DNA of 40,357 nt from a virus: positions 1 to 40,357 of the IMG/VR virus record IMGVR_UViG_3300045988_095878; one strand, 5' to 3'. The first letter of the stretch is position 1. Each line of letters opens with the position of its first letter. The position numbers and the translations under genes were made by a program. Positions 1 through 40,357 of this stretch are shown here, in pieces. The notes under the pieces were generated by a model. The model saw only the letters and a program-made list of their open reading frames with translations, did no database searches and was not told the origin of the DNA.

Positions 1-99
1 CGGAAAACCACTGCTTGTCCAGCTCCGGCTCGATGTCGCTCAGAAACCGGTTGGCGGCTCTTCTGCCCTGCGTGGCGTAGAGGTAGTTGTATACGCCGA
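1..99. repeat. Terminal direct repeat identical to 40259..40357; signature of a circular or circularly permuted genome assembly
   Basis: Both window ends read cggaaaaccactgcttgtccagctccggctcgatgtcgctcagaaaccggttggcggctcttctgccctgcgtggcgtagaggtagttgtatacgccga. A minus-strand ORF runs through the junction in frame. Confidence 0.9.
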
Positions 100-601
100 C
101 CTCGTCGCTCGTCATGAAGGCGTACTTGCCGTAGTCGCCCCCGCGTCCTTGCGCCTGCGCCAGATCCGCCTGTGACCGGAAATTCGCAATGTTGTTGATG
201 TAATCGTATTTCTCGTCGCCGAAAAACTGCCGCTTGCTGCCGGCGCTTTTGGAAAGCTCGGAATAGTCTCCCGCTTTCATATAATCGGCGTATTTCCCGG
301 AGTACAGCGTCGGCGTGCGGTCGTCCGCTTTATTGAAGATGGTTTTGAGAACCGAGGTCGAGCCGCGGGCAGCGTTCCCGCTCTGCTGCCTCAGCTGCGC
401 CGCCGCGTCGGCATAGAGCGACGGCGGCGTCCGGCTTTGCTGAATGCGCTTGGCGAGCGATGGCTCGTCCGAAGAAGCGACTGCATTTTCGGTCATCCCT
501 GTTTTTCCGTAAATGTGTTTTGCAAGCGACGGCTCGCCCGAGGAGGCAGCCGTATTTCCGGTTGCCCCCTGCTTTCCGTAAATTCGTTCTGTCAGGCTCA
601 T
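1..601 (-). CDS. N-terminal ~200 codons of the giant polyvalent-type virion protein; continues at 40258 downwards once the 99-bp overlap is removed
   Basis: ATG at 601..599 follows RBS-like ggaaagggagaaaca. The frame stays open to base 1 (MSLTERIYGKQGATGNTAASSGEPSLAK...SDIEPELDKQWFS). 40258+601-40241=618 is divisible by 3, so it is in frame with track ORF 32574..40241. It is missing from the track because it runs off the window. Confidence 0.8.
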   Translation of the reverse strand, partial: MSLTERIYGKQGATGNTAASSGEPSLAKHIYGKTGMTENAVASSDEPSLAKRIQQSRTPPSLYADAAAQLRQQSGNAARGSTSVLKTIFNKADDRTPTLYSGKYADYMKAGDYSELSKSAGSKRQFFGDEKYDYINNIANFRSQADLAQAQGRGGDYGKYAFMTSDEVGVYNYLYATQGRRAANRFLSDIEPELDKQWFS

Positions 602-623: not shown

Positions 624-1913
624 TTACTTGTTGTTTTTCAGCGCCTTCATTGCGTCATCCAGACCACTGCTTATCGTCGCTCGCTTGATTGCTTCCGCTT
701 GGTCTTTCGTGATGTTTCCTTCGGAAGTCTCTGCATCAATTGCGTTTGCAATGTCCTTGTACGGCGTCCCGCCTCGGCGCAAATTGATCGCTTCAGACAG
801 CATATTACGTCCGTTTTTCTTTGTGTCCTTGCTTCCGCCGTAGTAATACCCGCTGTACGACGGCGCCGCCGGCGCGGAGACGTAGCCGAGCGTCCGTGCA
901 AGGGACGGGTTCGCCGCGATCCACGCCTTTTTCATCTTCGCGATCTCGTCCTCCGTGTAGCCGAGATCGAGATAGCCGGAGAAGTCGCCGTACTGTGCCA
1001 TGTTCTCCGCCCGCTGCGCCTTATCCTGCTGCTGCTGTGCAAGGAGGTTCGCAAGGTTGGCATAGAGATTCTGCTGCGCCTGCGCGTTCGCCTGGTCCCT
1101 CGCGGCGTTCGCCTGATACTCGGCGTCCGCGCCCCGCTCCCGCAGCTTCGCAATGGCGGCGAGCCGCGCCGCCTCGTTCTCGTTGAGCCGCTCGCCGTAG
1201 GCGGTGTCCAGTCCCAGCCGGGCGGACTCGCTCATGCCGCCGGAGTACCCCCGCGCCGCCATCTCCTGCGGCAGAGTGCGCAGGCTCTCCATGTAGTCGC
1301 GGTAGAGCTGCTTGTTGAGATTCCCGTACTGCGTCCCCAGCTCCCCGACGCCCTGCTCCACCTGCCCGAGCGCCCGCTCGGCGGCGGCCTTCGCCGCGTC
1401 GTTGTTCGCCTTCACGGCGTCGTCGTACATCTTCTGGTACTGGTCGCGGAGCTCGTCGAGGTACGTCCGCTTCGGCTCTGCGGGCGTCTCCTCCGTCGTC
1501 CCGTCCGTCGTGCCTTTCTTGGCGTTCCCGTCCTCATCGACATACGTCACCTTCGGCTGCGTCTGCTCCCGGCGCAGACGCTCGATGTAGTCCCAGTCCC
1601 AGCCGTTTGCCGGATTCGCCGGCGTCGCCGGCGTCTCCGACGCCGCGGGCGGTTTGGCGTTTTCCCACGCTTCCTCTGCCGCCGCCGACAGTCCCGGCGG
1701 CTCCTTTCCCGGAAGCAGCAGCCCGAATCCGTCACGATAATACCCCGGCGGCGTATAATTTTTGTTCCGTATCGCTTCGGTATACTCCTTGCTGTATCCG
1801 CCCTTGTTTGTGTTGCTCGGCGTCTGGTTCGCGTTGGATCTCGGAGAGGTGTAATCCGTTTTGTTTACTCCGACGTTCGCGGCGGAATACACCGGCTCAT
1901 ACGTTTTAGCCAT
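624..1913 (-). CDS. Hypothetical virion-associated protein (429 aa) with an Ala/Gln-rich coiled-coil centre
   Basis: ATG at 1913 follows gagaggagaacagaaaa. The gene is tightly packed between the portal/Zn-ribbon ORFs and the giant gene. I recognised no catalytic motif. Confidence 0.6.
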   Translation of the reverse strand: MAKTYEPVYSAANVGVNKTDYTSPRSNANQTPSNTNKGGYSKEYTEAIRNKNYTPPGYYRDGFGLLLPGKEPPGLSAAAEEAWENAKPPAASETPATPANPANGWDWDYIERLRREQTQPKVTYVDEDGNAKKGTTDGTTEETPAEPKRTYLDELRDQYQKMYDDAVKANNDAAKAAAERALGQVEQGVGELGTQYGNLNKQLYRDYMESLRTLPQEMAARGYSGGMSESARLGLDTAYGERLNENEAARLAAIAKLRERGADAEYQANAARDQANAQAQQNLYANLANLLAQQQQDKAQRAENMAQYGDFSGYLDLGYTEDEIAKMKKAWIAANPSLARTLGYVSAPAAPSYSGYYYGGSKDTKKNGRNMLSEAINLRRGGTPYKDIANAIDAETSEGNITKDQAEAIKRATISSGLDDAMKALKNNK

Positions 1914-2016
1914 TTTTCTGTTCTCCTCTCGGATAGTTGATGCACTTCGGGTTTCGGCAGACCCATTTTGTCGCGTTCGTCTTGGTCATTTCAATGCCGC
2001 ATTTTGGGCACTTCAT
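1906..2016 (-). CDS. 36-aa zinc-ribbon microprotein (MKCPKCGIEMTKTNATKWVCRNPKCINYPRGEQKNG)
   Basis: Hand translation. It has CxxC...CxxxxC spacing. Its ATG overlaps the portal stop (ATGA) and its stop overlaps the next gene start (AATGGCTAA). It is below the ORF-track length cut-off. Confidence 0.5.
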   Translation of the reverse strand: MKCPKCGIEMTKTNATKWVCRNPKCINYPRGEQKNG

Positions 2017-3887
2017 ACCGGCGCACCCCCCAGCATCGGGAGACTCTGCGCCCCCGGTATCGCTCCCTCAAGGCTCGCCGCGTCAATACCCCCCTGTGAA
2101 AGGCTCCCTTGTGTAAAGGGAGCTGTCGCCGCAGGCGACTGAGGGATTGCAGTCTCCGGCACCCCGAATTTCCGCTTCCATTCATCAATGATCTCCTGCT
2201 TGCCCGGCAGGTCGATAAGATCGAGCTGCGCTGCGTAGAGCTTCCAGTTGTCCGCCGTGATCTGGCTCTGCGTGAGCGCCTGCAGTGCGCTCAGCGTCTG
2301 CGCCTTGCCGTGGGCAATGCTGTCTCCCGCCGTGATCGTCACGTCCACCCGGGGGAAATACTCCCATTCGTCGCGCACAATGTTTCCTGCCATGTCCATC
2401 ACCGCCGGCATGACCGCCGTGAAGCTGTCGGCGTTGAACGGCATAGCCTGCGCCTCGCGGTCCTTCAGCTTGTCCGCGCCGATGTACAGCATCCGGTCGT
2501 CGTCGAAGAACTCCAGCGCCGACCAGTCCAGCAGCTCGTAGAGCCGTTCAAACCCGGCGGCGCGGTCCGCGCTCTTGATGCTCGACTGCTCCTGCGCGTC
2601 CTGCCGCAGCAGGGCAATGCCCGTCGCCGTCGTGACGCGGGTCGTCTCCTTGCCGGTGTTGGTGTCGTAGTTGCGGCTCGTGCGCTCGATCTGATTTTTG
2701 AAGAACTCAATCCCCATCGCCCCGTTGGCAATGCTCTGCAAGCCGCCGAGCCGTTGCACGCCGCCCATGCGCCCCTGCTTGAGGTGTACTACCGTTCCCG
2801 GCTCGTTCGTCAGCTCCTCGCCGTCGGCGAGCGCTCCGTCCTCTACAAGCAGGATGTCGTTCGCAAGGAACGTGTCGTTCAGAATGCTCATTGCGAGCTT
2901 CCGGTCCGCGGCGTCCACGAGATCGAGAATCGCGGCAAGCTCGCTCTTGTTCCAGAAGCGGTTTTCGTCCTGAATGCGCCAGTAATGCACGAACGGGAAG
3001 AGCCTGTTCTGCTTGCACGTCCTCTTCCAGTAGTTGGGGATGTACTTCAGCTCACGTCCGCCCGCCTGCACCGAGCAGGCGACCGCCCCGGCGGGGACCG
3101 TCTCGCCGTCTATGACCGTCTCGACCGGCTGGCGGAACCAGTGTTCGAGAATCTGCACCGTGTCGTCCACGTCGTCAATCGCCGTCGTTAAATCAAAAAG
3201 TCCCGTGCGGGAGACGTAGTCCGAGCTGAGAATGTCCTCCGCGGTCAGCCCCTGCTTTTCCAGCTCCCGCTTGTAGAGCTGGCAGAATTTAACTTTGTGG
3301 ATTGTGTATACGTAGTCCACAAACTGCCCGTCCTGCAGTGTGCCGTCCCGGATGGACGGATCCGGGAAAATGGATTCCGTCGGCACATCCTTGATCCGGA
3401 TGTCGCCCTCGTTCACGCCGCAGCGCATATCCTTATCCCAGTACGCCTTCCAGAAGGCGTCGCCGAGCTTCAGCAGCCGCCGCTCGTTGCGCGTGTTCAT
3501 GTCGGACAGGCGGTTGTTCTCCGCGATATACCGCACGGCAAACTCGCGCCGCTTCGCCATCGTGCTGTCGAGATCGTCGTCGCGCCCGCGGAACTCTGGC
3601 TCCGGCACGTTCGGCTCGATCTGACTCTCGACAAGGATGTACGGGTCCGGCATGTTTGCCGGCAGCCACGGAATGTCGTTGTCGCGGCAGTATTCGATCA
3701 TGTCCCGCGTCGCGTCATGGATGCCGTTGTAGTAGTCGTTGTACCGCTCCCACTCGGTTTCTACGGCGGTACGCGCCGCCTTTGCCCGGCGGAACAGCGC
3801 GTCCGCCGTCGTCTCCCGCATCTCCTGTGTGGAATAGTCGTACCCGACGATAATATTATCGTCGGGCTTTTTCTTTCGTTTTTTCAT
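2013..3887 (-). CDS. Portal protein (624 aa)
   Basis: Size, position in the structural operon and N-terminal portal-like text (WERYNDYYNGIH, PDPYILVESQIEP, RRLLKLGDAFWKAYWD). It is the only portal-sized candidate. The C-terminal tail carries an in-frame copy of the two-hairpin repeat. Confidence 0.65.
   Translation of the reverse strand: MKKRKKKPDDNIIVGYDYSTQEMRETTADALFRRAKAARTAVETEWERYNDYYNGIHDATRDMIEYCRDNDIPWLPANMPDPYILVESQIEPNVPEPEFRGRDDDLDSTMAKRREFAVRYIAENNRLSDMNTRNERRLLKLGDAFWKAYWDKDMRCGVNEGDIRIKDVPTESIFPDPSIRDGTLQDGQFVDYVYTIHKVKFCQLYKRELEKQGLTAEDILSSDYVSRTGLFDLTTAIDDVDDTVQILEHWFRQPVETVIDGETVPAGAVACSVQAGGRELKYIPNYWKRTCKQNRLFPFVHYWRIQDENRFWNKSELAAILDLVDAADRKLAMSILNDTFLANDILLVEDGALADGEELTNEPGTVVHLKQGRMGGVQRLGGLQSIANGAMGIEFFKNQIERTSRNYDTNTGKETTRVTTATGIALLRQDAQEQSSIKSADRAAGFERLYELLDWSALEFFDDDRMLYIGADKLKDREAQAMPFNADSFTAVMPAVMDMAGNIVRDEWEYFPRVDVTITAGDSIAHGKAQTLSALQALTQSQITADNWKLYAAQLDLIDLPGKQEIIDEWKRKFGVPETAIPQSPAATAPFTQGSLSQGGIDAASLEGAIPGAQSLPMLGGAPV
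2101..2149 (-). repeat. Two-hairpin repeat element, copy 1 (inside the portal 3' end)
   Basis: aggctcccttgtgtaaagggagctgtcgccgcaggcgactgagggattg. Hairpin ctccctt/aagggag plus hairpin gtcgcc/ggcgac, followed by the conserved tail ctgagggattg. Confidence 0.8.
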
Positions 3888-28622: not shown

Positions 28623-28623
28623 G

Positions 28624-28722: not shown

Positions 28723-28744
28723 TTCTTCCCCCCTTGTCGTTTTG

Positions 28745-28773
28745 TTGCATTTCCTGTCATTTTCTTGTATACT
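28745..28773 (+). promoter_or_regulatory. Candidate promoter for the HTH-TM/integrase pair
   Basis: TTGCAT (28745-28750), 17 nt, TATACT (28768-28773). A structured leader of about 250 nt follows. Confidence 0.45.
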
Positions 28774-29018
28774 ACAACAAACTTTTATCTTTTTTGCGTC
28801 GTTCTTTGGCATTTGTTCTATAGTGTAGGCAAGGCGCCCGGGGTGATCGTGCCACAAGTCCGCCCCGGGCGTCCGCCGCAGGGCGTCCCGCTCGCCCTGC
28901 TGTGCCTGTATCGTAGCATACTCTCCCGGATTCTGAAACCGAACGCCTTGTGAGCGAGCCGGAGTATAGTGTTTTACCCCTCGGATATATCCCGGCTTGC
29001 CACTGGAATAACGAAAGG

Positions 29019-29549
29019 ATGGAAACCATGAACGAAAACGAAATGGACGTGTTGAAAAACCGCTGGAGAGAGGCGAAGAGTACGCGCACGTTCTCGGACA
29101 TTGCCGAAGCCGCCGATCTGTCGCCGAGCACCGTGGAGTATGCTTTCTCCTTCAGATCTGCAAACCCTTGCATTGATACGGTCGTGCGCATCTCCCGGGA
29201 GCTGCACGTCTCGCTCGACGATACCTTCGGCATCCTCTCGCCGAGCAATCGTTCGGAGACGGAGCTTGCCCGTCAGGACGCCGCCCACTGGAAAGCGCGG
29301 TGTGAGTCCGCCGAACGGGACGTCGAATATCTCCGGACGGTCCTCTTGATGCTCGGCGTGTTCTTTCTCGTCCTCGTCGTCTGGTGTGTAACGATGGATC
29401 TTCGCTGCACGGAGATTGGTTTCTTCCGCGGGCGGTGGAGCTTTGGCGCCGTGTTCTCGATGCTCTGCGTCGCCGTCGCCGCAGTGATGGTTGTTCTCGT
29501 CATCGTCCGCGTCTGCCGCCGCCACAGGCAGCGTAAGGAGCAGAAATAA
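29019..29549 (+). CDS. Membrane-anchored HTH protein (XRE-like N-terminus, coiled coil, two TM segments)
   Basis: STRTFSDIAEAADLSPSTVEYAFS...IDTVVRISRELHVSLDDTFG is HTH-like. The TM segments are VLLMLGVFFLVLVVWCV and FGAVFSMLCVAVAAVMVVLVIV. The start is ATG 29019 or 29028, after aaagga. Confidence 0.6.
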   Translation: METMNENEMDVLKNRWREAKSTRTFSDIAEAADLSPSTVEYAFSFRSANPCIDTVVRISRELHVSLDDTFGILSPSNRSETELARQDAAHWKARCESAERDVEYLRTVLLMLGVFFLVLVVWCVTMDLRCTEIGFFRGRWSFGAVFSMLCVAVAAVMVVLVIVRVCRRHRQRKEQK

Positions 29550-30694
29550 TGAAGTGCTGCAGCTGCTCCCGCGAGATCCCGGAAAACTCGCTGTACTGCA
29601 ACTGGTGCGGGAAAAAGCAGTCAAAAACAAAAAAACGCCGGCGCAAACGCGCCGACGGCTTCGGTTCTGTATGGAAACTGCAAGGGAAGAGATCCCGCCC
29701 ATGGGTGGCACAGAAGGACGGTCAGACCGTCGGGTACTATGCGACTGCGAAAGAGGCAGACGAAGCTCTGTCCCTGCTCGTGCGTACTCCTCTGACAGAG
29801 AGATATAATTATACTCTCGCGGAAGCGCACGATCTCTGGCAATCCGAAAAGTTTCGTACCCTCGGTGAAAAAGGGCAGGAAGGATATTGTTCGGCATGGA
29901 AGCACCTTGCACCGCTGTACAGCACAAGACTTCGAGAAATTCGTTCCGAAGATTGGCAGAGCGCCATCGACGAAATGCGAGGGAAGAGCCGAAGTACCTG
30001 CGACAAGGTGAAACAGCTTGCGAGCCAGATTTCCAAATGGGGGATCAGAGAGGAAATTCTCCAAGTGAACTACGCGCAGTTTATCGTTCTTCCGGCGGAA
30101 AAGAAAAAGCCCGTCGTTACATTTACGCCGGAAGAGCTGGCAAAGCTCGCCGCCTCGCAGAGCGATACGGCGGACATTATTCTTCTTCTCATGTATACCG
30201 GAGCGCGTATCAACGAATTGTTCACCGTCCCGCTGGAATGTTGTTACGACAAATGGATCCTGTGGGGCAGCAAATCCGATGCCGGGCGTGATCGCAGCAT
30301 TCCAATCCCCGACATAATCCTTCCGCGCTACACACGCATCCGGCAGCGTGCGCTCGATACCGGCGGCACGCGCTTGATTGATGGGTATTCCGGCGCTCAC
30401 GATGTAAGCAACTTCCGCAAGAGAGACTATTATCCCCTTCTCGAATCCCTCGGTATTGAGCGTAAAGTACCGCACACTTCAAGGAAAACTTTTATCTCTG
30501 CCAACGTCGAAGCTGGAACACGCCCAGAGATCCTGCAAACCGTCGTTGGACACGCCGATTATGATACGACCTTGAAATACTATACCAAATTTTCCCACGA
30601 AACGCTCTCCGCGGCAGTGAACAAGGCAGTCAGTTGCCAACAAATCCCCAACAAAAGCGAAAAAGCCGAAAATAAAAAAGCCCGTAATCCTTGA
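29549..30694 (+). CDS. int: Tyrosine recombinase (phage integrase) with an N-terminal zinc ribbon
   Basis: TGARINELF (Arg), HTSRKTF (HxxR) and GHADYDTTLKYY (His/Tyr) are present. The N-terminus is MKCCSCSREIPENSLYCNWCG. The start overlaps the upstream stop (TAATG), and attP lies immediately downstream. Confidence 0.9.
   Translation: MKCCSCSREIPENSLYCNWCGKKQSKTKKRRRKRADGFGSVWKLQGKRSRPWVAQKDGQTVGYYATAKEADEALSLLVRTPLTERYNYTLAEAHDLWQSEKFRTLGEKGQEGYCSAWKHLAPLYSTRLREIRSEDWQSAIDEMRGKSRSTCDKVKQLASQISKWGIREEILQVNYAQFIVLPAEKKKPVVTFTPEELAKLAASQSDTADIILLLMYTGARINELFTVPLECCYDKWILWGSKSDAGRDRSIPIPDIILPRYTRIRQRALDTGGTRLIDGYSGAHDVSNFRKRDYYPLLESLGIERKVPHTSRKTFISANVEAGTRPEILQTVVGHADYDTTLKYYTKFSHETLSAAVNKAVSCQQIPNKSEKAENKKARNP
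30631..30653 (+). repeat. Arm-type repeat, left copy (inside the int 3' end)
   Basis: cagttgccaacaaatccccaaca compared with cagttaccaacaaatttccaaca at 30858: 20 of 23 bases identical, same orientation, flanking the tRNA-like core. Confidence 0.6.
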
Positions 30695-30711
30695 GATTAC
30701 AGGCTTTTTTT
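30679..30711 (+). terminator. Terminator hairpin spanning the int stop
   Basis: agcccgtaatc-cttga-gattacaggct, with one mismatch, followed by ttttttt. Confidence 0.6.
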
Positions 30712-30757
30712 GGTGGAGACGAATGGGCTCGAACCATCGACCTCATGCGTGTGAATT
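30711..30757 (-). other. attP core: 3' half of a tRNA (anticodon loop to CCA), not a complete tRNA gene
   Basis: The minus strand reads ttcacac-gcatg-aggtc-gatgg-ttcgagc-ccatt-cgtctcc-a-cca (anticodon loop, stem, variable loop, T arm, acceptor, CCA). No 5' half lies upstream. The loop would imply Val(CAC). Confidence 0.7.
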
Positions 30758-30857
30758 TTATTCGACAGAAAGTTTTACACGATACCGCACGAAATAACCC
30801 TGATTTTTCAACGCTTTTCGGCGTTCCCGTTTCTTTCTGTTTTGTTGTATTCCGTGT

Positions 30858-30880
30858 CAGTTACCAACAAATTTCCAACA
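30858..30880 (+). repeat. Arm-type repeat, right copy
   Basis: cagttaccaacaaatttccaaca. Confidence 0.6.
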
Positions 30881-30904
30881 GTTCACCGTACTGTACGGGT
30901 TGCT

Positions 30905-31207
30905 TTATCTCCCGTCATAGAGCGCGAGCTTCATTCGGATCATCGCTTCCCGCTCCATGATCCGATCATGCTCATATTCCCAGATCGAGCGCATACTTTC
31001 GGGGGGCTCCTTGTCGTACTCGCGGATGAGCCGCACCGCCTGCGCGTGGAACAGCTCGCAATGCTCCAGCTCCTGCCGCGCCACTCTCGCGTAGACGTCG
31101 CCGAGCTCCTTGTCCTCGTCTTTGTTTCGCAGGGCGTGCTTTGCGTAGTGCTCGGCAGCCTCCAGCTCATAGCCCATATCCTTAACAAGGCACTGGATTT
31201 TTTTCAT
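30905..31207 (-). CDS. Small helical protein (100 aa), unknown function
   Basis: RBS aaggag lies 9 nt before the ATG. It is the last gene before attP. Confidence 0.6.
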   Translation of the reverse strand: MKKIQCLVKDMGYELEAAEHYAKHALRNKDEDKELGDVYARVARQELEHCELFHAQAVRLIREYDKEPPESMRSIWEYEHDRIMEREAMIRMKLALYDGR

Positions 31208-31208
31208 C

Positions 31209-31550
31209 TCACATTTCTCCTTTCAGATAGCGGTATAATTTCTCAAAGTCGCCGCGGTCGAACCGGAAGTCCCCGACGACCGGCAGCGAGATCAGCACCG
31301 GCTCGTTGATGTACGGCGAAACCGCCGAAAAGAGTGCGTCCACGTCCACGCCTTCTTCGGATACCGCTCCGGTCAGTGCCACGAGCGGCTTGTCCTTCAT
31401 TCCTTGCAGCATCCCGGCGGCGTTCTTCGTGGCGAGCGCCGCGTATCCGCCGAGCAGGATCCGCTTCCCGCCGGTCATATGCGGCAGCATTTCCGCGTCA
31501 ACGAACCGCGTAAGGCGCGTCTGAAGCTCTGCATAAGAAACCATAGTCAT
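31209..31550 (-). CDS. Hypothetical protein (113 aa)
   Basis: RBS gaggagg is present; the start is ATG 31550 or 31544. Confidence 0.6.
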   Translation of the reverse strand: MTMVSYAELQTRLTRFVDAEMLPHMTGGKRILLGGYAALATKNAAGMLQGMKDKPLVALTGAVSEEGVDVDALFSAVSPYINEPVLISLPVVGDFRFDRGDFEKLYRYLKGEM

Positions 31551-31607
31551 ATCCTCCTCATAAGATCAAGCGGGGGAGGGAATTTCACCTCCCCCGCCCG
31601 GCGTGGG

Positions 31608-32153
31608 TCAGGTGGTCGTGGTGGTCGTCGCGGGCTTGACGGTCACTTCGCCCCAGCCCGGGCAGCAGGAGCTGTTCGGGACGACGAGCTTCGTGAGACC
31701 CTGAAGCTGCGCGACCTGCGCCTGGATGCAGCCGACGGCGGCGGTGTTCGTGCCGTTGTAAACCGCCTGCTGGAGATTGATGCCGTTCTGCTCTTCCTTG
31801 TTCGAGCGAACCTCTCCGGCAAGATCGAGGATACGGCTTTCGAGCTTGGAGTAGGCGTCCGTGATCTTGCGGCTCGTCTCGTCCTGCCCGCGCCAGTAGG
31901 CGATCTCCATGTCCTTCTGCGCGATGGTCTGCGCCTGATCGAGTTCGTAGCGGCTGACCGGCGCGTCGTCTCCGCACTTCTGCGCCGCCATACCGGCAGC
32001 GAGACCGGCAACGGCAGGGACGGCAGCCGCCGCCGCGTTGTTCCCCATGCCGCCGAAAAGATTGCTGAGACCGCCGTTGAGCAGCCAACCGGCCGTACCG
32101 GCGATGCCGAGACCGAGGGCGGTCCCGCCCGTAGCTTTGGATGCGTATTCCAT
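31608..32153 (-). CDS. Gly/Ala-rich membrane-associated coiled-coil protein (181 aa) with a C-terminal CC..GWG and poly-Thr tail
   Basis: RBS aggagg lies 9 nt before the ATG. TALGLGIAGTAGWLLNGGLSNLFGG...AAVPAVAGLAAGMAA is followed by a coiled coil, and the protein ends KPATTTTTT. Confidence 0.6.
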   Translation of the reverse strand: MEYASKATGGTALGLGIAGTAGWLLNGGLSNLFGGMGNNAAAAAVPAVAGLAAGMAAQKCGDDAPVSRYELDQAQTIAQKDMEIAYWRGQDETSRKITDAYSKLESRILDLAGEVRSNKEEQNGINLQQAVYNGTNTAAVGCIQAQVAQLQGLTKLVVPNSSCCPGWGEVTVKPATTTTTT

Positions 32154-32212
32154 ACAATGATTCCTCCTTAAAAATTTTCACCGTAGCGCTCCGGCTAAAG
32201 AAATCATCGCAT

Positions 32213-32247
32213 AAAAAGAGAGAGCCGCCCTGTCGGGAAGCTCCCTC
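32213..32247 (-). terminator. Intrinsic terminator after the small sigma-r4-like gene
   Basis: The minus strand reads gagggagc-(14 nt)-gctctctc-ttttt, with one G-U pair. Confidence 0.55.
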
Positions 32248-32268
32248 TTTCGCTGCGGGAAACTGTCG

Positions 32269-32466
32269 CTAAACTCTCGCCATTTTGGCCTTGATGCACC
32301 GGATCTTCCGGTTCACCGCCGATTCGGACAGGCTCAGCGCCATGCATACCTCGACGATGCTCTTGTCCGATACCCGGAGATCGAATACCTTTCGCTCCAG
32401 CTCAGTAAAATTGCATTCTCTCCGGAAGTGCTCCGCTTCCGGGCGCGTGAGATTGTTGAACTGCAT
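32269..32466 (-). CDS. Small sigma-70 region-4 / LuxR-type HTH protein (65 aa), possible late-gene regulator
   Basis: FTELERKVFDLRVSDKSIVEVCMALSLSESAVNRKIRCIKAKM. ATG 32466 lies 5 nt after aaaggag. Confidence 0.6.
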   Translation of the reverse strand: MQFNNLTRPEAEHFRRECNFTELERKVFDLRVSDKSIVEVCMALSLSESAVNRKIRCIKAKMARV

Positions 32467-32573
32467 AGCCGCTCCTTTCGTTCGGAGCGCCTCGCGGTGG
32501 CACACGCTGCAAGCGTCACGCGGCGCAAATCCTGCGCATTATCCCGCTCCCCGCTTATCGCGGGGAGCTTCTC

Positions 32574-35500
32574 TTACCTTGAACTCGGCAGCTTGCCGTG
32601 CTTCAAAAAGTAGTCCAGCGGGCTGCCCCCCTTGATGGTGATCGTCCGGTTGCCGTGCTTGATCACGGTGTCCACGGCTTTCTCCGTCGCCTTGCGGATG
32701 TCCGTTCCGCCCGACATCTTCGCAAAGTCCGCGATGGCGTTTCCTTTCGTTCCGTTGGTCGAGACCTTCGCCTCCGGAATTACGTTCTTCGCCGCCTTCG
32801 GCGCGGCGGGAGCCTTGAGCGCCTTTGCCTTTCTGCTGCGCCGTCCGCCCCTGCCGGAGCCGCTGCCTCCGTTCCACGGCTGATACCGCAGGCTGTTCTC
32901 CTTGTACCCAGCGGCAATGTACAGCGCGTCCTTCTGCTCGGCGGGAATGTCGAGCGAGTTGATGTACTCCACGACCTTTTTCTTCTTTGACCCGGAAATG
33001 CTCTTGCCGTTCTCGTCCTTGTCGGCGTGCATATCCTTCGTGGCGAAATAGTAGTCGTAGTAGGTGTCGTAGCTCACGCCCTTACCGTAGGCGGTGCGTG
33101 CCTTGTCGTACACGTCCGAGCTGTACGTTTTCAGCGCGTACTCCGCGCCGAAGATCTCCCGGTTGATCTCGCGGTAGACGATGGCGTCCATGCGGCTCTC
33201 CGCCTGCTCCTCTGTGATGTCGTACTTCTCAGCGAACTCCGCAATGGCGGCGTCGTTGTCGGAGGAAAGCTCCGGATGCTCCTTGAGATACTTGTTCACC
33301 GCCTCGCGGTACGGCTCCGACTTGGCGATGATCTCCCTCTGCCGCTCAATGAGCTGCGCCTTCAAAGCGCGGACGAGCCGGTTCTTTTCGCCCTTGGAAA
33401 GCGTCTTGTCGTTCTGTATCTCGCGGATCTGCGCGTAGTAGTCGTTCACCGTGTCCCCGGCGTGGGAGACATACCGCCGCGTGATTTCCGCGCCGAGATC
33501 CCCGTCGTTCTTATCGTACTTGAGATCATCCAGCAGGTCGTAGTACTCGCTCGTCACGCGGTTGTTGCTGGTTGTGTCGATGGTGAACGCCGCCTTCGGC
33601 GCAGCGAGCAGCGGGTGCGACGCGCTCGTCGCCGGCGTAATGTGCGGCAGGAGGATGTCTCCGATGACGCCGGAGTACTGATCCAACAAATAATTGATCT
33701 TCTTCGGCGACAGGTTGAACGTTTTTCCGATCCATTTGGAAAGCTCGTCCGTTTTCTCGTCGTACCGCTCGCCCGGTCGGTAATTCTGCAATCTCTCGCT
33801 CTCGATGTTCCCGCCGTACCACGTCGTGCCGGGGTTGTCCGAGTTGAGGAGCTTTGTCTGCGTCCACGCCGTCGCGATGTTCTGATTGAAGATGTCCGTC
33901 GGGGCGACGTTGCTTTTGATTACCTCGAACACGTCGGAAAACTTCACGTCTCTGCCGTTGAGCTTCTCCTGCCCGTACACCGCGGCGGTACTCAGCACGG
34001 CAATGGCGCGTCCCTTCGGGATCTTGATCCAGTAGCCATTTCCCCATTTGATGAGATAGTAGTTCGCTTTCGTGTTGGCGGGGATGTCGTCCCACTCGTC
34101 ATCGTCGCCGTGCATAAGACCGTTCAACAGCAGCGGCGGCAGATTGATAAGCGCCGCTTTCAGAATGAGCGTCGCAGCCGCTTTCACGTCCCGCCGCTGC
34201 ACAATGTCCGTGGCGTTCCGGATAAATTTGTCGAACCCCTGCACGGACGGGTTGAGGAACGGCACAAAATACCGGTTGAGCGCCTTCGTCACGGTGCCGC
34301 CGCGGGCAAAGTTTGTCGTGATGTCCGCCGCGCCCAGCATCGCCTCCATCAGGTCGTTCTGCGTGAATTTCCCGGTTTTCACTCCGTTCACCGTCTTGCT
34401 CCCGCCCTTGTTGGCGAGGATGGTCATAAACTCCGCAAGACGGGGCGCAGCTTCGATTGCCTGTCCGAACGACTCATATTTTGCCCACACCTTCCCCGCA
34501 AGGCTTTTCGGCTCCTTCACCATGCCGGTCGTATAGTCCAGCATGGAGGCGTAGGAGCCGCCCAGCGCCTTGTACTGCTGCCAGATTTCGCCGTTCCTTG
34601 CGATCTGCACAATCGCCACCGGGTACATTTTTTCCCACGTGGTCCAGTCCGTGGAGTAGAACCCCGCGTCCTGCCAGTCGCGCACGGCGTTCCGCACCAT
34701 GAAAAACGGGTTGTACCCTGTGCAGAGAGCCTTGAACAGGTCGTTGAGCTTTTTCAGCCCCTGCGCCACGGGGAGATTGCCGTATTTGTCCGGCTGGAAC
34801 GCATTCAGCGCCTGCGTCAGCCCCTCGTCCATCGTGATGTCGTAAACCTTTCCGTCGCGCTTCACCGAGAAGATGTTTTGGAATACCGGCTGGTAATCCT
34901 CGTCGCTTTCGATGACGGCGTCCGTCGGCGTATACTCGCTTTCCGCGACATTCCAGATATACTTTTCCACGCGCTTTTTGTTGCCCTCGTATTCGTCCAG
35001 CAGCGCGGCTCCGAGCTGGTTTATGCCGGCGTTTCGCATCACGGATACCGTTTTCCGGCTCAGTGCGGTGTGCAGCGGCAGCAGCACAGCGTCGTCGCCT
35101 ACAGCTCTTCCTATGGCGTTCGACACGGTAATCCCGCCGTTTTTCCGGGCTTTTCTCCCCGCTCTGCTGTTTGTTCCTTCTCGCAGCGTGGGAACGTAAT
35201 GCGGGTAACGCTTTTGCAGATTCCGAGCATACTCCGCCGTAATGAGTCCCGCTCTGACGCGATAAGCAAGCAGGTCGTCGGAATACTTGTATACTTCCTT
35301 TGCCCATTGCTTGAACTCCGGGTTGGTATCCTCCAGCAGCTTTGCCGTTTCGCGGCTTTCTTCCGCCGTCACTTCGTATCCGAACACGGGCTTCAGTCCC
35401 TGCCGCTCCGCAATGCTTCTCTGCTTTTCCAGCTCCAGCACATACGCGGCGGCGGTCGCAACGGACGTTATCCTGCGCGGCTCGCCCTTGTGGGCAGCAA

Positions 35501-38500
35501 GGAACACTTCATGCGCCTCCGCCCGCACGACCGGCGAATCGCCGTCATATTCCACGATCTGCCGCAGCTCGTTTTTAGACAGCTCCCGGAGCTGGGGGAA
35601 TTTGTCCTTCACCCATTTAAGATTTTCTTTGATTTTCGCTATCTCCGCGGAGTTGTCGTACATCATGCGGTCTACGTTGTGCATATGGTAGAGATACAGC
35701 TGGAAATCCCGATACTTTGCCTCATTCTTCCGCATCGGTGCAAGCGTGTCCGCAAGACTTGATCCGATCTTGTGTCCGTCGATGTCGGTGCGTGCGCCGC
35801 CCTTGGTGATCCAGTTTCCCGCTCGCTGCGAATACGCCCCGGCGTTGAAGTAGTAGCCCTCCAGACTTTTGTTTCCGGTCGCCTTGGCGATCCGCCGCAC
35901 CGTGTCCCCGGCGTTCACGAACATCCGCATAGCGCCGCTCGAAATGCTCTCCATATTCTCCCGGAAGCTCTTCGCCGTCTTTGTGACCTCGGTAGTGATC
36001 TTCCCTGCCGTTGCCTCGTCCGTCGTGGCAGCTTCCAGTCTTGCCGCCGTCCGTTTTTTCTCCTGCTCGGCGGCAGCCGCATCTTCGGAATCTCCGAACA
36101 GCTCGGCAATGCGGGCATCCTCCTCGGCGGTTCTTTCCGCCTCCAGCTTCTTCGCTCTCTGGAAATTTTCCTCCGAGAAATTTTTGTTTGCCTGTGCATC
36201 GACGTACTCTGCGGCGTTTCGTGCCGCCACTTCCTTCAAGGGGCTGGACTCCTTGTATATCTGCCTCCCCGCGTGCTGGATCGTCGCGGTATGATTGACG
36301 CCGAGCGCGTCGGATTCCAGCTTGACCTTGTACACGGTCGTCCTCGGCTGATCCATTGAGATCGGCGCTGCCACTTCGGACTTTCCGCTGCTCATCAGCT
36401 CGCGGTATACCTGCCCCGCACCCTTGTCCGGCGCCGGGCGTCCATACCCGCGGTTGGCTCTGGCAAGCGTCTCGTCCTTTCTCATCAGCCGGGCAGCTTC
36501 CTGCCGGTCCTGCTGTGCCATCTTTCGGAACCATTCCCGGCGCTTGTCGGCTTCGTTCTGCTCTTCCACCTCTACGCTCGCCCGCCCGGAAGAAGCCTTC
36601 TGCACCACACCTCCGAGCTCGCTTAATTTTTTCCCTGTAATCTTGACACCGTCTTCGGCATATGCTATATTGCCTATAGAGCCATACGGTGGTTGGCGTG
36701 ACGGGAATTGTACCCTGAGCTGCATCAGCCACGTATCGGCTCTATTTTTGTTTGTGTCAAGGTACAAAAGTTCCGAGTTGTTGATCAGGTTTTGCAGGTT
36801 TCCGACAGATCTTCCGTAAGCGCTCGTCACGAGGGAAAACTCCGCTTCCGTCCTTCCGCCCGGCTTTGGTGTTAGCTCCAACGCGACCATCAGATTGTTT
36901 CCGTTTTTTGCCTTTTCTTCGCTCAGCAGCACGATGCTGTCCGACCGGGTAAGTGACTTCATAATCAAAACCGGGTTTTCGAGAATATCCGGAACCTTTT
37001 TGATGACATCCGCGGTTACTTCCGGGTGTTCCTCAAAGATTGTCCCGATCTTGCTTTTCCGCATATAGATGTTGTCCGTCCTTGCGCCGATGCTTTGCAG
37101 CGCCTCGGATGTCGTTCCCACGCGGAAATAGCCCGGCGACGTACTCAGCGCATCCACCGGCGTATTCTTCACCCAGTCGTCTACGTTCTTCCCGAAGTTC
37201 TCGTCAATGCTGTAGCTTGTCGTGTACCCATCCGCAAACACGGTATCCGCGTCGCCCAGATCGGGCGGCGTTTTTTTGCGCTCCTCGGCGGTCATCCGGC
37301 GGCGTGCGGCGGTGTCTCTCGCCTCGATCTCCCCGGCGGTGTTCCAGTAGAACTCTTTCACCGCTTCGCTCGCGTCGCCGAGAATGCGGTCGTACCGGTT
37401 CAGCTTTCCGAACCATTCCTTTCCGTAAAGCTCCCTGTACAGCTCGTCCGAGCGCTTCTCCAGCTCGTCCATTCGGCTTTCATCGTAGAGCACGGAGCCG
37501 TCGAGCATCGCTCCCATCTCGCGTTCAGTGCTGCGGTACTCGTCGTACAGCGCCCGATCCTCTGCGCTCAGACCATGGAGAAGCCGCGCCCGATTATCCC
37601 GATATTTTTCCGTCGCTTCGTTGTAGGTCGCCTCCCGGTTCCAGTATTGCGGGCTTGCGCCGCCGGTAAAGCCTTCCGTATTCTGTATGACGTGCTGGAG
37701 CTCGTGCAGTACAACGTCGGTCTCTTCCCCGAACAGAGAATCGCTCAGGATGATCGTGTTGTCCCGCTTGCTGAAATAGCCCTTTTGTCCATCCGGCAGA
37801 GAGTCGAACCTTACTGTCACGTTTTTCAGATCGGGGTATGCTTCAAAGAGCTTCGGATGGTTTATATACTCTGCCAAAGATAAATCATTTTTCCCCGCAG
37901 ACGCGCTCATTTTTCCTTCCAGCGCTGCGGCGAAGTTCTCAAACTCGTCCCCCAACACATCGGTCAGCTGCTGATAGGTTTTATCGCTGAACTCACCTCT
38001 TTCTCGCTGGCTTACGTACTCTCTGAGCATTCCGCGCTGTTCATTCGTTAGCCCGTCACCCGTGAGATTCTTGAACCGCGCCGTGTATTCCCGCAGAGCC
38101 TGAGTTTTTTCACGTTCCGACACGTAGGCTTTCCGAGTTTTCATCCCGGAATCGTCGATTTCAAAGCGCCATTTGCCGTCTCTGCCGCGATACCAGCCCG
38201 TTTCCTGCCGGATGGTCTCATTGTCCGTCCCGCTCTTTTCCAGCGCTTCTGCGCGGCGCAGGGCGGCGCTGTCGGCGGTTCTGGCGTTGATTCCCGCCGC
38301 ACTCGCTTTGCCCGGCGGTCCCGTCGTCTCCTGCTGCGTCTCGGTTCTCTGAGCCGGGGCGCTTTTTTGCGTCTCGGCGCGGATGGCGTCGCCGATCTCG
38401 CCGCGACCGTAGAAGAAATTCAGCCCCGCATAGGCGTCCGCCGCGATCTCCTCGGTGAGCAGCCGCTCGATTTCGTCCACGCTCATGGTCTCAAAATCAT

Positions 38501-40357
38501 AGATGCCCGCGTAGGCGTCCCGGTAGCTCTCATACATGGCGTCGTACTCCTCGGCGGTCATGCTCTCGCGTACCACGTCGTCCGCCGTCCGGATCATCTC
38601 CTCCGTGGCGTTTGCGTGGAAAAGCTCATGCTCCGCGATCAGCGCCGGGGAGACGGCAAGCCCGCTCCCGGTTTTCGCGTCCACGCGGAAATATACCCTG
38701 CCGTTTTCCACATAGCCGTTCACCGCCGTGCCGTTGATGAACATCTCGCCGCGGAACGCCACCGGCTCCATTCCGGCGGCAGTCACCTTGTCATACGCCG
38801 CCTGCGCTCTGGTGTCGAGCCGCTGCGCGTCCACGAGCGTGATCGTCTCGTTCCCGCCGCCGCGGATGCCGAGCTGCGCCGGGGTTACTTGCCGTAGATC
38901 CGCCTGCGTGTACGCTCCCACGCCTCCCGGAATTTCTTTTCCGCCGCCGGCGAGAGCTTGCGCTCCTGCTTCGGCGGCAGCTTGTCCGCCGGCGCGGAGA
39001 CCAGCATACCCGTTTTCTCGTCCCTGATAAGCGCTCTGTCCATTGTTCAAATCTCCTTCCGTATTCTGGATTTCCTGCGCGGCAGCCGCGACAGGCGACT
39101 GAGGGATTGTCGCTTCCTCTCTCTGCGCCGTATTGGCGGCTGTAGGCGCGTTTTTTGTCTGGGCAGTATAAGTACTCTCCTTCGCATCGGAACGCGCTCC
39201 TGCCTCCATCTGCTGCGTCATATACGCCGCAGCGCGTTCCATGTCTTTCCCCGTGCCGACCTTTGCCCGGAGTTCGTCCGCGTTCTTCGCGTCCACCAGC
39301 TCCGCCAGTGCGTACACCATGCCGGGGTCATCCGTTTTCGCGTCCCGCATCATCCGAACGACGTCCTGCGCCGTCGTGTCCAGCTGCTCCGCCACATAGT
39401 TAACGTATTGTTTATTGCTGTAGCTCTGTACGGTGCTGCTGCCGACGGAAGCAAGTGCGCCGCCGAGGAAGGAAAGCCCCTCCTGTCCGAGAACGGCGGC
39501 GAACGTCGCAAGCTCCGGGTGTTCCTTCTGGAACGGCGTGCCGTTCTGCTTGTAATACTCCAGCATCTTGGGAATGCCGCTCTCCTGCGTGCCGAAAAGC
39601 GCGTCCACCACGAGGTTTACCGCGCCGTTCGCCGCGTCCGACATCACTTCCTCCACGCCCTCCGGAGCCATAGCCAGCAGCACGCTTTTTATGAGATTCG
39701 TCGGGTTCTGTTTGAAGATTTTGATCGCCCACTCGCCGCCGACGGCTTCCGAGGCAAATTCAATGGCGCCGCGGGTAAGTCCGAGCGCGAGCGCCCCCTC
39801 GTTGGAATAGCCCTTTTCCTTGCTCTCGGCAATGGAGAGGGACGCCACCTCCGAGGACATCGCCAGCGAGCCGATGACGTTCGTCGCCGACATCAGCGCA
39901 GGTCCGGAAAAACCTGCCGCTTCTCCGAAGCCTTTTGCGACCAGCATATTCACAGCGCTGTCCGCGGCGCTCATCGCCGTGTTGTAAACAAAGCTGCCGA
40001 CCTTGCCGCCGAGACCCGGGTTTGTCTCCTCGATGTGTGATGCCGTGTCTCCGCGCAGCTCCTGCGTGATGTTGCTCGGCTGTCTCCACTTGGAATACGG
40101 ATTGATCTCCTGCCCGCGCAGCGACCGGACCGCGTCCTCTCCCATGGCGATTACGCTTGTCAGATTCCGCACCGGCTGCGCCGCAACGGTCATGGCGCTG
40201 GCAAGCGCTCTCGTCCCCGCGTTCTTGCCCAGCGCTTCCACAGTGCCGCGGTTCGCTCCGGAAAACCACTGCTTGTCCAGCTCCGGCTCGATGTCGCTCA
40301 GAAACCGGTTGGCGGCTCTTCTGCCCTGCGTGGCGTAGAGGTAGTTGTATACGCCGA
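32574..40357 (-). CDS. Main body of the giant polyvalent-type virion protein; about 2,761 aa in total after joining to 1..601
   Basis: The frame is uninterrupted. Two HExxH motifs are present (HELFH 38616-38630, HELQH 37692-37706). There is an LPD-like WYRGRDGKWRFEIDD, a GEIEARD motif and a MuF_C-like segment (about 36747-37139). The track start at 40241 is an internal GTG. Confidence 0.85.
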   Translation of the reverse strand, partial: GVYNYLYATQGRRAANRFLSDIEPELDKQWFSGANRGTVEALGKNAGTRALASAMTVAAQPVRNLTSVIAMGEDAVRSLRGQEINPYSKWRQPSNITQELRGDTASHIEETNPGLGGKVGSFVYNTAMSAADSAVNMLVAKGFGEAAGFSGPALMSATNVIGSLAMSSEVASLSIAESKEKGYSNEGALALGLTRGAIEFASEAVGGEWAIKIFKQNPTNLIKSVLLAMAPEGVEEVMSDAANGAVNLVVDALFGTQESGIPKMLEYYKQNGTPFQKEHPELATFAAVLGQEGLSFLGGALASVGSSTVQSYSNKQYVNYVAEQLDTTAQDVVRMMRDAKTDDPGMVYALAELVDAKNADELRAKVGTGKDMERAAAYMTQQMEAGARSDAKESTYTAQTKNAPTAANTAQREEATIPQSPVAAAAQEIQNTEGDLNNGQSAYQGRENGYAGLRAGGQAAAEAGAQALAGGGKEIPGGVGAYTQADLRQVTPAQLGIRGGGNETITLVDAQRLDTRAQAAYDKVTAAGMEPVAFRGEMFINGTAVNGYVENGRVYFRVDAKTGSGLAVSPALIAEHELFHANATEEMIRTADDVVRESMTAEEYDAMYESYRDAYAGIYDFETMSVDEIERLLTEEIAADAYAGLNFFYGRGEIGDAIRAETQKSAPAQRTETQQETTGPPGKASAAGINARTADSAALRRAEALEKSGTDNETIRQETGWYRGRDGKWRFEIDDSGMKTRKAYVSEREKTQALREYTARFKNLTGDGLTNEQRGMLREYVSQRERGEFSDKTYQQLTDVLGDEFENFAAALEGKMSASAGKNDLSLAEYINHPKLFEAYPDLKNVTVRFDSLPDGQKGYFSKRDNTIILSDSLFGEETDVVLHELQHVIQNTEGFTGGASPQYWNREATYNEATEKYRDNRARLLHGLSAEDRALYDEYRSTEREMGAMLDGSVLYDESRMDELEKRSDELYRELYGKEWFGKLNRYDRILGDASEAVKEFYWNTAGEIEARDTAARRRMTAEERKKTPPDLGDADTVFADGYTTSYSIDENFGKNVDDWVKNTPVDALSTSPGYFRVGTTSEALQSIGARTDNIYMRKSKIGTIFEEHPEVTADVIKKVPDILENPVLIMKSLTRSDSIVLLSEEKAKNGNNLMVALELTPKPGGRTEAEFSLVTSAYGRSVGNLQNLINNSELLYLDTNKNRADTWLMQLRVQFPSRQPPYGSIGNIAYAEDGVKITGKKLSELGGVVQKASSGRASVEVEEQNEADKRREWFRKMAQQDRQEAARLMRKDETLARANRGYGRPAPDKGAGQVYRELMSSGKSEVAAPISMDQPRTTVYKVKLESDALGVNHTATIQHAGRQIYKESSPLKEVAARNAAEYVDAQANKNFSEENFQRAKKLEAERTAEEDARIAELFGDSEDAAAAEQEKKRTAARLEAATTDEATAGKITTEVTKTAKSFRENMESISSGAMRMFVNAGDTVRRIAKATGNKSLEGYYFNAGAYSQRAGNWITKGGARTDIDGHKIGSSLADTLAPMRKNEAKYRDFQLYLYHMHNVDRMMYDNSAEIAKIKENLKWVKDKFPQLRELSKNELRQIVEYDGDSPVVRAEAHEVFLAAHKGEPRRITSVATAAAYVLELEKQRSIAERQGLKPVFGYEVTAEESRETAKLLEDTNPEFKQWAKEVYKYSDDLLAYRVRAGLITAEYARNLQKRYPHYVPTLREGTNSRAGRKARKNGGITVSNAIGRAVGDDAVLLPLHTALSRKTVSVMRNAGINQLGAALLDEYEGNKKRVEKYIWNVAESEYTPTDAVIESDEDYQPVFQNIFSVKRDGKVYDITMDEGLTQALNAFQPDKYGNLPVAQGLKKLNDLFKALCTGYNPFFMVRNAVRDWQDAGFYSTDWTTWEKMYPVAIVQIARNGEIWQQYKALGGSYASMLDYTTGMVKEPKSLAGKVWAKYESFGQAIEAAPRLAEFMTILANKGGSKTVNGVKTGKFTQNDLMEAMLGAADITTNFARGGTVTKALNRYFVPFLNPSVQGFDKFIRNATDIVQRRDVKAAATLILKAALINLPPLLLNGLMHGDDDEWDDIPANTKANYYLIKWGNGYWIKIPKGRAIAVLSTAAVYGQEKLNGRDVKFSDVFEVIKSNVAPTDIFNQNIATAWTQTKLLNSDNPGTTWYGGNIESERLQNYRPGERYDEKTDELSKWIGKTFNLSPKKINYLLDQYSGVIGDILLPHITPATSASHPLLAAPKAAFTIDTTSNNRVTSEYYDLLDDLKYDKNDGDLGAEITRRYVSHAGDTVNDYYAQIREIQNDKTLSKGEKNRLVRALKAQLIERQREIIAKSEPYREAVNKYLKEHPELSSDNDAAIAEFAEKYDITEEQAESRMDAIVYREINREIFGAEYALKTYSSDVYDKARTAYGKGVSYDTYYDYYFATKDMHADKDENGKSISGSKKKKVVEYINSLDIPAEQKDALYIAAGYKENSLRYQPWNGGSGSGRGGRRSRKAKALKAPAAPKAAKNVIPEAKVSTNGTKGNAIADFAKMSGGTDIRKATEKAVDTVIKHGNRTITIKGGSPLDYFLKHGKLPSSR
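39092..39109 (-). repeat. Partial (3' half) copy 4 of the two-hairpin repeat, inside the giant gene
   Basis: caggcgactgagggattg is identical to 2132-2149. It is translated as IPQSP in the same frame as in the portal. Confidence 0.7.
40259..40357. repeat. Terminal direct repeat, second copy of 1..99
   Basis: The 99-nt sequence is identical on direct reading. Confidence 0.9.

Follow-up and report, generated by a model that had tools for sequence, protein, structure and literature searches.

What kind of protein is encoded by the giant gene that straddles the ends of IMG/VR virus record IMGVR_UViG_3300045988_095878, and at what stage of the phage life cycle would such a protein act? The window (i.e., the whole stretch of DNA analyzed here, 40,357 nucleotides) had initially been annotated, from its letters and open reading frames (ORFs) alone, as coding for a polyvalent protein with two zinc metallopeptidase (zincin) modules, each with an HExxH motif, followed by a MuF-like module, all within positions 36747-38630. 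Our analyses leave little room for doubt that the gene product belongs to the phage-type polyvalent proteins as defined by Iyer et al. (2017, J Bacteriol; PMC5512222). The overall explanation that we favor, at a probability of about 0.65, is that of a polyvalent protein of a temperate short-tailed phage which would be packaged in the virion and ejected at infection, its effector domains acting early.

The first and last 99 bp of the window form an exact direct repeat (1-99 = 40259-40357). The window is a complete genome, either a circular assembly or one with a terminal repeat, of 40,258 bp of unique length once the repeat is counted a single time. Because its two ends are identical, the giant ORF wraps around the contig junction: on the minus strand, it starts at an ATG with the ribosome-binding site GGAAAGGGAG upstream, continues in-frame across the junction, and stops at 32574-32576, giving a protein of 2,761 amino acids (aa) that takes up 20.6% of the genome. 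The window boundary itself cuts through the gene. Residue numbers prefixed by g refer to the translation of the minus strand of 32577-40355, the full-length number being g + 168. All eight peptides quoted in the initial annotation were found in this one minus-strand ORF: WYRGRDGKWRFEIDDSG at g721-737, LFEAYPDL... at g836-872, VVLHELQHVIQNTEGFTGG at g881-899, YWNTAGEIEARDTAARR at g1003-1019, IYMRKSKIG... at g1096-1134, LMVALEL at g1155-1161, LVTSAYGRS at g1175-1183, and VSPALIAEHELFHANATEEM at g568-587. Most of them lie inside 36747-38630, although VSPALIAEHELFHANATEEM (38654-38595) starts 24 nt beyond the upper limit of that span; the plus strand of the same span has many stop codons on translation and is noncoding.

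From the N terminus, the protein comprises short repeats, a Gly/Ala-rich region, the first HExxH module (module 1), LPD23 joined to the second (module 2), and the MuF_C/PBECR domain, followed by a charged helical spacer, a conserved C-terminal module of about 600 aa, and a basic tail. The domains LPD23, MuF_C, and LPD38 exceed their Pfam cut-offs (Table 1), which bears out the polyvalent architecture. All three are signature domains of polyvalent proteins, and the zincin-like metallopeptidase (MPTase) is the hub domain of the phage type; LPD38 has been reported in phage-type polyvalent proteins only (PMC5512222). The giant protein had no match in NCBIfam or PADLOC, the search of the whole protein against PDB sequences with phmmer gave noise only, and a megablast of 30000-40357 against phage and plasmid collections returned no match.

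Module 1 belongs to a large, constrained, and as yet unnamed HExxH family which, in our searches, resides mostly in giant phage proteins. Its HELFH motif (g576, 38616-38630) is followed after about 60 residues by E636-x3-D640 (38436-38450), the ExxxD of the gluzincin pattern, and H576, E577, H580, Y611, E636, and D640 are invariant in the 16 homologues aligned. Searching with the module alone had yielded just eight short fragments; the subsequent profile search of 1.84 billion representatives gave 1,041 clusters at E ≤ 1e-3 and 715 at E ≤ 1e-10, and the proteins bearing the module have a median length of 2,760 aa. Among 128 full-length representatives with at most 50% pairwise identity, HExxH is present in all 128 and ExxxD in 124. 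The module has no match in Pfam at E ≤ 5, and the family is missing from NCBIfam and PHROGs as well. Its AlphaFold 2 (AF2) model is very confident (predicted local distance difference test [pLDDT] 93.3, predicted template modeling score [pTM] 0.87) and has the core topology of a zincin: an N-terminal helix and a small sheet lead into the HExxH helix, which two insert helices then separate from the ExxxD helix. The six top Foldseek matches in the PDB are all Zn peptidases, none of them significant (best E value, 2.3; probability, ≤0.03). Against the predicted viral structures of BFVD, large phage polyvalent proteins supplied the best match (E value, 8.6e-5) and many of the others; entries named "PolyVal Metallopeptidase" and "Metalloprotease" matched at E values of 0.056 and 0.034, respectively. 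An hhalign comparison with module 2 aligned two strands and the HExxH motif (E value, 0.0099), and a resemblance to eCIS_core/DUF4157 at the HExxH was nonsignificant (E value, 0.16). Profile searches with either module against PDB sequences gave noise only.

Module 2 appears to be zincin-like from sequence and model evidence that converges, each line being weak singly and no single test significant. LPD23, within which the WYRGRDGKWRFEIDDSG block lies, forms the structured N-terminal part of the unit (pLDDT 92-98 in the model) and is followed by a helical insert, a three-strand sheet, the HELQHVIQNTE helix (HELQH at g884, 37692-37706), a further helical insert, and the NTAGEIEARD helix (37314-37343), the inserts measuring about 90 aa and 110 aa. 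Across 64 homologues, LPD23, the HELQH region, and the NTAGEIEARD helix behave as one conserved unit of about 320-350 aa, and in a 26-sequence alignment (A1) H884, E885, Q887, H888, Q891, E894, and G1008-E-x-E-A-R1013 are invariant. The isolated segment matches DUF6782, a putative metallopeptidase family, at an E value of 2.2e-5 and 24.2 bits, below the cut-off of 27, and the phrog_87 metallo-protease at an E value of 3e-4. DUF6782 is above cut-off in the homologues P0106 (36.7 bits), P0029 (31.8 bits), and P0016 (27.3 bits), the first of which also matches SprT-like (28.6 bits against a cut-off of 25.6); the homologues with these above-threshold matches share 33-58% identity with module 2 over all 345 aa. 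In the AlphaFold model (pLDDT 86.9, pTM 0.71; lower confidence in the first helical insert), the topology is that of the zincin core described by Iyer et al. (PMC5512222). The top Foldseek matches in the PDB were the minigluzincins jannalysin, selecase, and abylysin, with E values of 0.32-2 and none at ≤1e-3: jannalysin (4jix_B) had a probability of 0.97 and an E value of 0.32 over 47 columns, selecase a probability of 0.82, the E values of these two spanned 0.32-0.9, and the superpositions gave a root mean square deviation of 2.1-2.4 Å over 47-50 columns. The proposal of two zincin modules is thus upheld by the invariance of HExxH among homologues and by model topology, and not by any profile above cut-off in the window sequence itself.

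HExxH occurs exactly twice in the giant protein, at g576 and g884, against 0.021 occurrences expected from the amino acid composition; two or more arose in only 5 of 20,000 shuffles. A scan of GTDB genomes with alignment A1 recovered 157 relatives of module 2, mostly in metagenome-assembled genomes of Oscillospiraceae and other Clostridia; a genome search for related loci with a single C-terminal segment, in contrast, found nothing. In ORFs with enough flanking sequence, to which these counts are confined, a second HExxH lies 150-700 aa upstream of module 2 in 50 of 54 relatives (median distance, 318 aa) and downstream in 4 of 57, compared to the only ~8% of MPTase-bearing proteins reported to have more than one MPTase (PMC5512222). 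Exactly two HExxH motifs were present in 47 of the 51 giants of at least 2,000 aa. Given the low expectation and the upstream pairing in relatives, the two-protease arrangement is not due to chance. As only 14 of the 50 upstream partners fall in the module 1 family, the clade of the partner varies. Two short relatives, L015 and L073, were considered as natural splits of the gene after module 2 and rejected, overlapping ORFs in other frames indicating frameshifts.

The MuF_C domain, overlapped by a PBECR3 match below cut-off (E value, 0.0024; 18.2 bits), would be the RNase of the protein. Among the phage BECR-fold proteins predicted to be RNases, MuF-C is a clade defined by a first-helix His and a Ser/Thr on strand 4 (PMC5512222). 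Alignment places the candidate catalytic residues His1110 (37026-37028) and Thr1177/Ser1178 (36822-36827) on these helix 1 and strand 4 positions, and among 15 diverse homologues the His is kept in 13 and the Ser/Thr in all. The domain is thus predicted to be a metal-independent endoRNase with the residue configuration of active BECR endoRNases. The Phage_Mu_F head domain (PF04233) gave no match at E ≤ 1 with the whole protein or at E ≤ 5 with its segments. The MuF-like designation therefore applies to the C-terminal PBECR domain; the giant protein carries that domain yet is not a MuF protein.

This position appears to be exchangeable. A sister phage, L004, on a 39-kb contig binned with Oscillibacter sp. 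ER4 (CAVFND010000002.1), has in its region 7406-17119 a lysin, a portal (78% identical), the 429-aa ORF (83%), a 3,238-aa giant, and an integrase (90%). Its giant protein keeps LPD23 and LPD38 and has LPD3 at the position of MuF_C. Other close homologues carry PBECR3, PBECR5, LPD3, or ART-PolyVal beside the same LPD23-zincin unit.

The flanks of the protein differ in how widely they are shared. At the extreme N terminus is a repeat of about 23 aa, SLxxxIYGKxGxTxNxxASSxEP, in two and a half copies. The Gly/Ala-rich region that comes next has no match in Pfam or NCBIfam and was found by jackhmmer in 68 of 92 giants with module 1 and 37 of 51 with module 2, making it the most widely common part; MuF_C and the LPD38 module are far rarer among these giants. 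The idea of LPD38 as a universal chassis of the giants was rejected, since jackhmmer finds it in 5 of 92 and 5 of 51. By tblastn, the C-terminal module (g1640-2236) matches giants of Thalassomonas, Vibrio, Shewanella, Aeromonas, Ralstonia, and Escherichia coli phages of the 933W/phi24B type. Directly before LPD38 is AAATLILKAALINLPPLLL, the sole strongly hydrophobic segment of the 2,761-aa protein, which aligns with a hydrophobic stretch of the giant protein of Escherichia phage PhiR12_3 (XSB41893.1; 2,789 aa) and may be a membrane-insertion helix.

The genes around the giant gene indicate what type of phage it belongs to. The late genes run on the minus strand in the order TerS and TerL (the small and large terminase subunits), unannotated ORFs, an SU10-type adaptor, a 619-aa virion protein, a tail-fiber-like gene, a GH25+CW_7 lysin, a P22-like portal, a 429-aa ORF, and the giant gene. 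The annotated position of the giant gene after the portal holds once the genome is circularized, though without direct adjacency, the 429-aa ORF lying in between. This ORF has no match in Pfam, PHROG, or NCBIfam and does not resemble the gene that precedes the one for the E. coli giant. A short-tailed phage is indicated by the types of adaptor and portal together with the lack of a recognizable tail tube, sheath, or tape measure among the window genes. The late order (2013-15577) is unusual in that the portal lies ~10 kb downstream of the terminase genes, past the adaptor, tail fiber, and lysin, and the GH25+CW_7 lysin is placed amid structural genes.

The phage is regarded as temperate because a plus-strand island of lower GC content encodes a cI-like helix-turn-helix (HTH) repressor and a tyrosine integrase. 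Together with a 408-aa Mrr-like nuclease, AbiD (PADLOC E value, 6.4e-73; Pfam Abi_2, 2.7e-43), and two small ORFs without assignment, these make the island look like a prophage-borne defense and lysogeny module. Genes of a conjugative-plasmid type adjoin TerS at 15866-20402 on the minus strand, matching PcfJ-like (E value, 9.7e-40), DUF3102 (4.7e-29), and a Rep ORF2/G2P-like replication initiator (2.8e-09). An 886-aa plus-strand ORF (9263-11923) is almost certainly spurious: its GC content is 0.82 at the first codon position (GC1) and 0.62 at the third (GC3), and it overlaps three minus-strand ORFs (9413-11977; 319, 223, and 299 aa) with normal codon-position GC. None of these three matched a family in the libraries searched, and the capsid and scaffold genes are presumably among them. 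A scan of the whole window with ARAGORN gave no tRNA or tmRNA genes. The probable host of the phage is a gut bacterium of the Oscillospiraceae.

Table 1 Features of the giant gene and of the surrounding phage genome in the window
Feature	Position	Strand	Basis or remark
Giant gene, main part (codons 136-2761 + stop)	32574..40357	-	Single ORF, GC3 0.76, in-frame join
Giant gene, 5' end beyond junction	1..601	-	ATG at 601 behind GGAAAGGGAG
N-terminal short repeats (full-length aa 1-55)	437..601	-	Read from translation
Conserved Gly/Ala-rich N-terminal region (full-length aa 171-520)	39300..40349	-	jackhmmer
HExxH module 1, zincin-like (g515-665)	38361..38813	-	Motif conservation, AF2 model
HExxH module 2, entire (g686-1030)	37266..38300	-	LPD23 through NTAGEIEARD helix
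LPD23 domain (g686-739)	38139..38300	-	Pfam PF18838, E 2.1e-20, 72.7 bits vs cut-off 27
MuF_C/PBECR domain (g1108-1205)	36741..37034	-	Pfam PF18819, E 2.2e-22, 79.5 bits vs cut-off 27.6
Conserved C-terminal module (g1640-2260)	33576..35438	-	tblastn vs phages, BLASTP, Pfam
Hydrophobic helix (g2059-2077), AAATLILKAALINLPPLLL	34125-34181	-	Kyte-Doolittle peak 1.75
LPD38 (g2085-2242)	33630-34103	-	Pfam E 4.9e-24, 85.9 bits vs cut-off 27
429-aa ORF between portal and giant gene	624..1913	-	83% identical in L004, same position
Portal gene	2013..3887	-	P22_portal E 8.3e-13; phrog_156 portal E 9.7e-30
619-aa virion protein, amidase-like C terminus	6105-7964	-	phrog_5107, 2.9e-08
SU10-type adaptor	8520-7972	-	
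TerL	15167-13515	-	
TerS	15577-15137	-	
Lower-GC island (0.48-0.55)	25598-30694	+	cI-like HTH repressor, Mrr-like nuclease, AbiD, tyrosine integrase

Packaging and ejection of the giant protein are probable. We infer them because of the genomic context, the model of Iyer et al., and the analogy with gp47 of Stx phage phi24B, a 2,811-aa protein with LPD5, LPD1, LPD38, and MuF-C that was abundant in virion proteomics, was absent from the reconstruction, and was proposed by its authors to be an encapsidated ejection protein (2026 preprint). In the sequence of events that we propose, the giant protein would be synthesized late and enter the capsid, and at infection it would leave via the portal and tail, either preceding the DNA or accompanying it. 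The nonenzymatic N- and C-terminal modules would serve packaging, passage, or membrane insertion, while the enzymatic cassettes would be at work in the first minutes of infection, perhaps in the counter-defense role that had been suggested for them. The PBECR RNase would cleave host or defense-related RNA. As for the metallopeptidases, their most probable task would be to cleave the polyprotein into separately acting pieces, host proteins being possible substrates too. This self-processing by the two proteases is a preference that we hold tentatively and is not secure, given that some MPTase-bearing proteins are delivered uncleaved.

Several points weigh against this explanation. Self-processing is one of several roles considered for such peptidases, and N4 vRNAP, ArdC, and TraC1 are among the proteins delivered uncleaved (PMC5512222). 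The case for packaging draws on the genomic surroundings and on an analogue that is distant (25-27% identity) and described in a preprint. In the window sequence, both HExxH modules fall short of a curated profile threshold and lack a significant solved-zincin match, the best Foldseek E values being 0.32 for module 2 and 2.3 for module 1, and the candidate third ligand of module 2 is ambiguous (g-numbered E894, E1009, or E1011). The LPD38 module, lastly, is present in only ~5-10% of the giants with module 1 or 2.

Short-tailed phages need envelope-spanning ejection proteins, as in T7, P22, and N4, and the giant protein could be mainly a structural part of such an ejectosome, a conduit across the Gram-positive wall and membrane in which the HExxH modules would have wall or envelope proteins as substrates instead of processing the polyprotein or attacking defenses. 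This is the role that the phi24B authors proposed for gp47. A conserved hydrophobic helix in the C-terminal module points the same way, and so does the Gly/Ala-rich N-terminal region, which of all parts is the best conserved across relatives. HExxH zincins, however, are not usual peptidoglycan peptidases (those of the M23 and M15 families use other motifs), the phage already has an amidase-ended virion protein and a GH25 lysin, and the PBECR RNase and the swappable LPD3, ART, and PBECR cassettes have no obvious role in a conduit. We regard the conduit role as unlikely, and as compatible with the packaged-effector explanation rather than exclusive of it. Still less probable is that the giant protein stays unpackaged and works as a late intracellular factor, such as a protease for maturation or scaffold processing, or else a toxin used inside the producing cell in superinfection or inter-phage conflict. 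Its gene does occupy a late-operon position near head genes, where prohead proteases also occur, and Pfam, PHROG, and NCBIfam reveal no recognizable capsid protease among the unannotated ORFs. Yet at 2,761 aa and with LPD23, LPD38, and MuF_C the protein belongs to the polyvalent class and to no prohead protease family, the homologous phi24B-type protein was detected in virions, and the effector cassettes differ between near-identical phages, as is typical of conflict effectors.

Two further readings were rejected on genomic context. That the protein is the tape measure of a long-tailed phage with acquired enzymatic domains is very improbable, even if the ORF is the longest of the structural region and some tape measures bear peptidase or lysozyme domains. 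The adaptor matches SU10, a short-tailed Kuravirus, and the portal is P22-like; just ~10 kb of structural genes extend from TerL to the portal, among which no tube, sheath, or chaperone pair was detected; the giant gene follows the portal and not tail-tube genes; and homologues occur in podophage-sized genomes of 36-37 kb and in 933W-type podoviruses. The PcfJ-like, DUF3102, and Rep (ORF2/G2P) genes at 15.9-20.4 kb, of kinds common on conjugative plasmids, and the presence of an integrase might instead suggest an integrative conjugative element (ICE), with the giant as an ArdC-type polyvalent protein delivered by conjugation. This is the most remote of the alternatives: the locus is a 40.3-kb circle with terminase, portal, adaptor, tail fiber, and lysin genes, it has no match to ArdC-N, a relaxase, or a type IV secretion system (T4SS), and the LPD38 it encodes is a domain of phage-type proteins (PMC5512222).

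With the giant taken as a packaged and ejected polyvalent protein, a broader and decidedly speculative proposal, which we think improbable as it stands, is that the N-terminal region, the upstream zincin, and the LPD23-zincin constitute a directional two-protease "launcher" common to thousands of phage proteins of 2-4 kaa (thousand amino acids), mostly from Clostridia. Its proteases would act sequentially, or one would regulate the other, freeing interchangeable cassettes (MuF_C RNase, LPD3, ART, PBECR) after ejection. If this were true, module 1 would represent a large gluzincin family still without a name, and LPD23 would be an integral part of the second protease, regulating it or recognizing its substrate.

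The protein class, most of its domains, and the hypothesis for its function were already published in 2017 (PMC5512222). What is added here is modest: the full-length gene wrapping around the contig ends; a large HExxH...ExxxD family that has no name in Pfam, NCBIfam, or PHROGs; the directional and almost obligatory HExxH pairing in the LPD23 subfamily; and the swap of MuF_C and LPD3 between sister phages. The pairing, together with a family that Pfam lacks and that spans at least 1,041 clusters, could improve the annotation of many giant proteins of metagenomic phages. Polyvalent proteins are regarded as the weapons that a phage uses first, before it expresses any gene. To our knowledge, experiments have been carried out on almost none of them and on none from phages of gut Clostridia. 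The locus offers a tractable case, with a complete gene in a small 40-kb genome, a clear domain map, and a sister phage that differs mainly in one cassette, and it could serve to address whether such giants are packaged, whether the tandem zinc proteases cut the polyprotein, and what the PBECR RNase targets.

Set against known systems, the giant protein shares different parts with different relatives. Module 2 resembles the minigluzincins selecase, jannalysin, and abylysin in its compact core of sheet and HExxH helix, within the nonsignificant range of E values given above, and its homologues match the profiles of DUF6782 and SprT-like zincins; all of these lack the inserts of module 2 and its N-terminal LPD23 element. 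With the MuF/SPP1 gp7 proteins it has in common a gene close to the portal and a MuF_C (PBECR) domain like that at the C terminus of Mu gp30, although the Phage_Mu_F head morphogenesis domain was not detected, and although the PBECR domain of Mu gp30 is described as inactive (PMC5512222) while that of the window has the His and Ser/Thr. N4 vRNAP of the Schitoviridae is likewise a giant podovirus protein (~3,500 aa) with a zincin-like MPTase region, packaged in the capsid and ejected, as we infer for the protein studied here; it differs in its RNA polymerase module, which Pfam does not detect in our protein, and in being packaged and delivered uncleaved (PMC5512222).

The phage-type polyvalent proteins of Iyer et al. 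(PMC5512222) provide the closest match as a class: many unrelated domains in one huge polypeptide, including LPD domains and a predicted RNase of the PBECR/MuF-C group, encoded among the virion genes of a phage with portal and terminase. Pfam currently has no model that detects module 1 or the N-terminal region, and LPD23 is not treated in the main text of that study. Among individual proteins, the comparison is with the E. coli giants. The PhiR12_3 protein has, by Pfam, LPD5, LPD1, MuF_C, and LPD38, and BLASTP aligns it with the window protein at 27% identity in MuF_C (E value, 5e-10) and 25% over 513 columns of the LPD38 module (E value, 1e-11). Homology is confined to these two parts; LPD5 and LPD1 stand in place of the N-terminal region, module 1, and LPD23-module 2, the gene is at the far end of the late region, past the tail-fiber genes, rather than next to the portal, and the host is Gram negative. 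Like the phi24B gp47 and 933W-type proteins, the window protein is a giant of a temperate short-tailed phage (2,761 versus 2,789-2,811 aa), and it is collinear with that of PhiR12_3: MuF_C, several hundred residues, and then a conserved module ending in LPD38.

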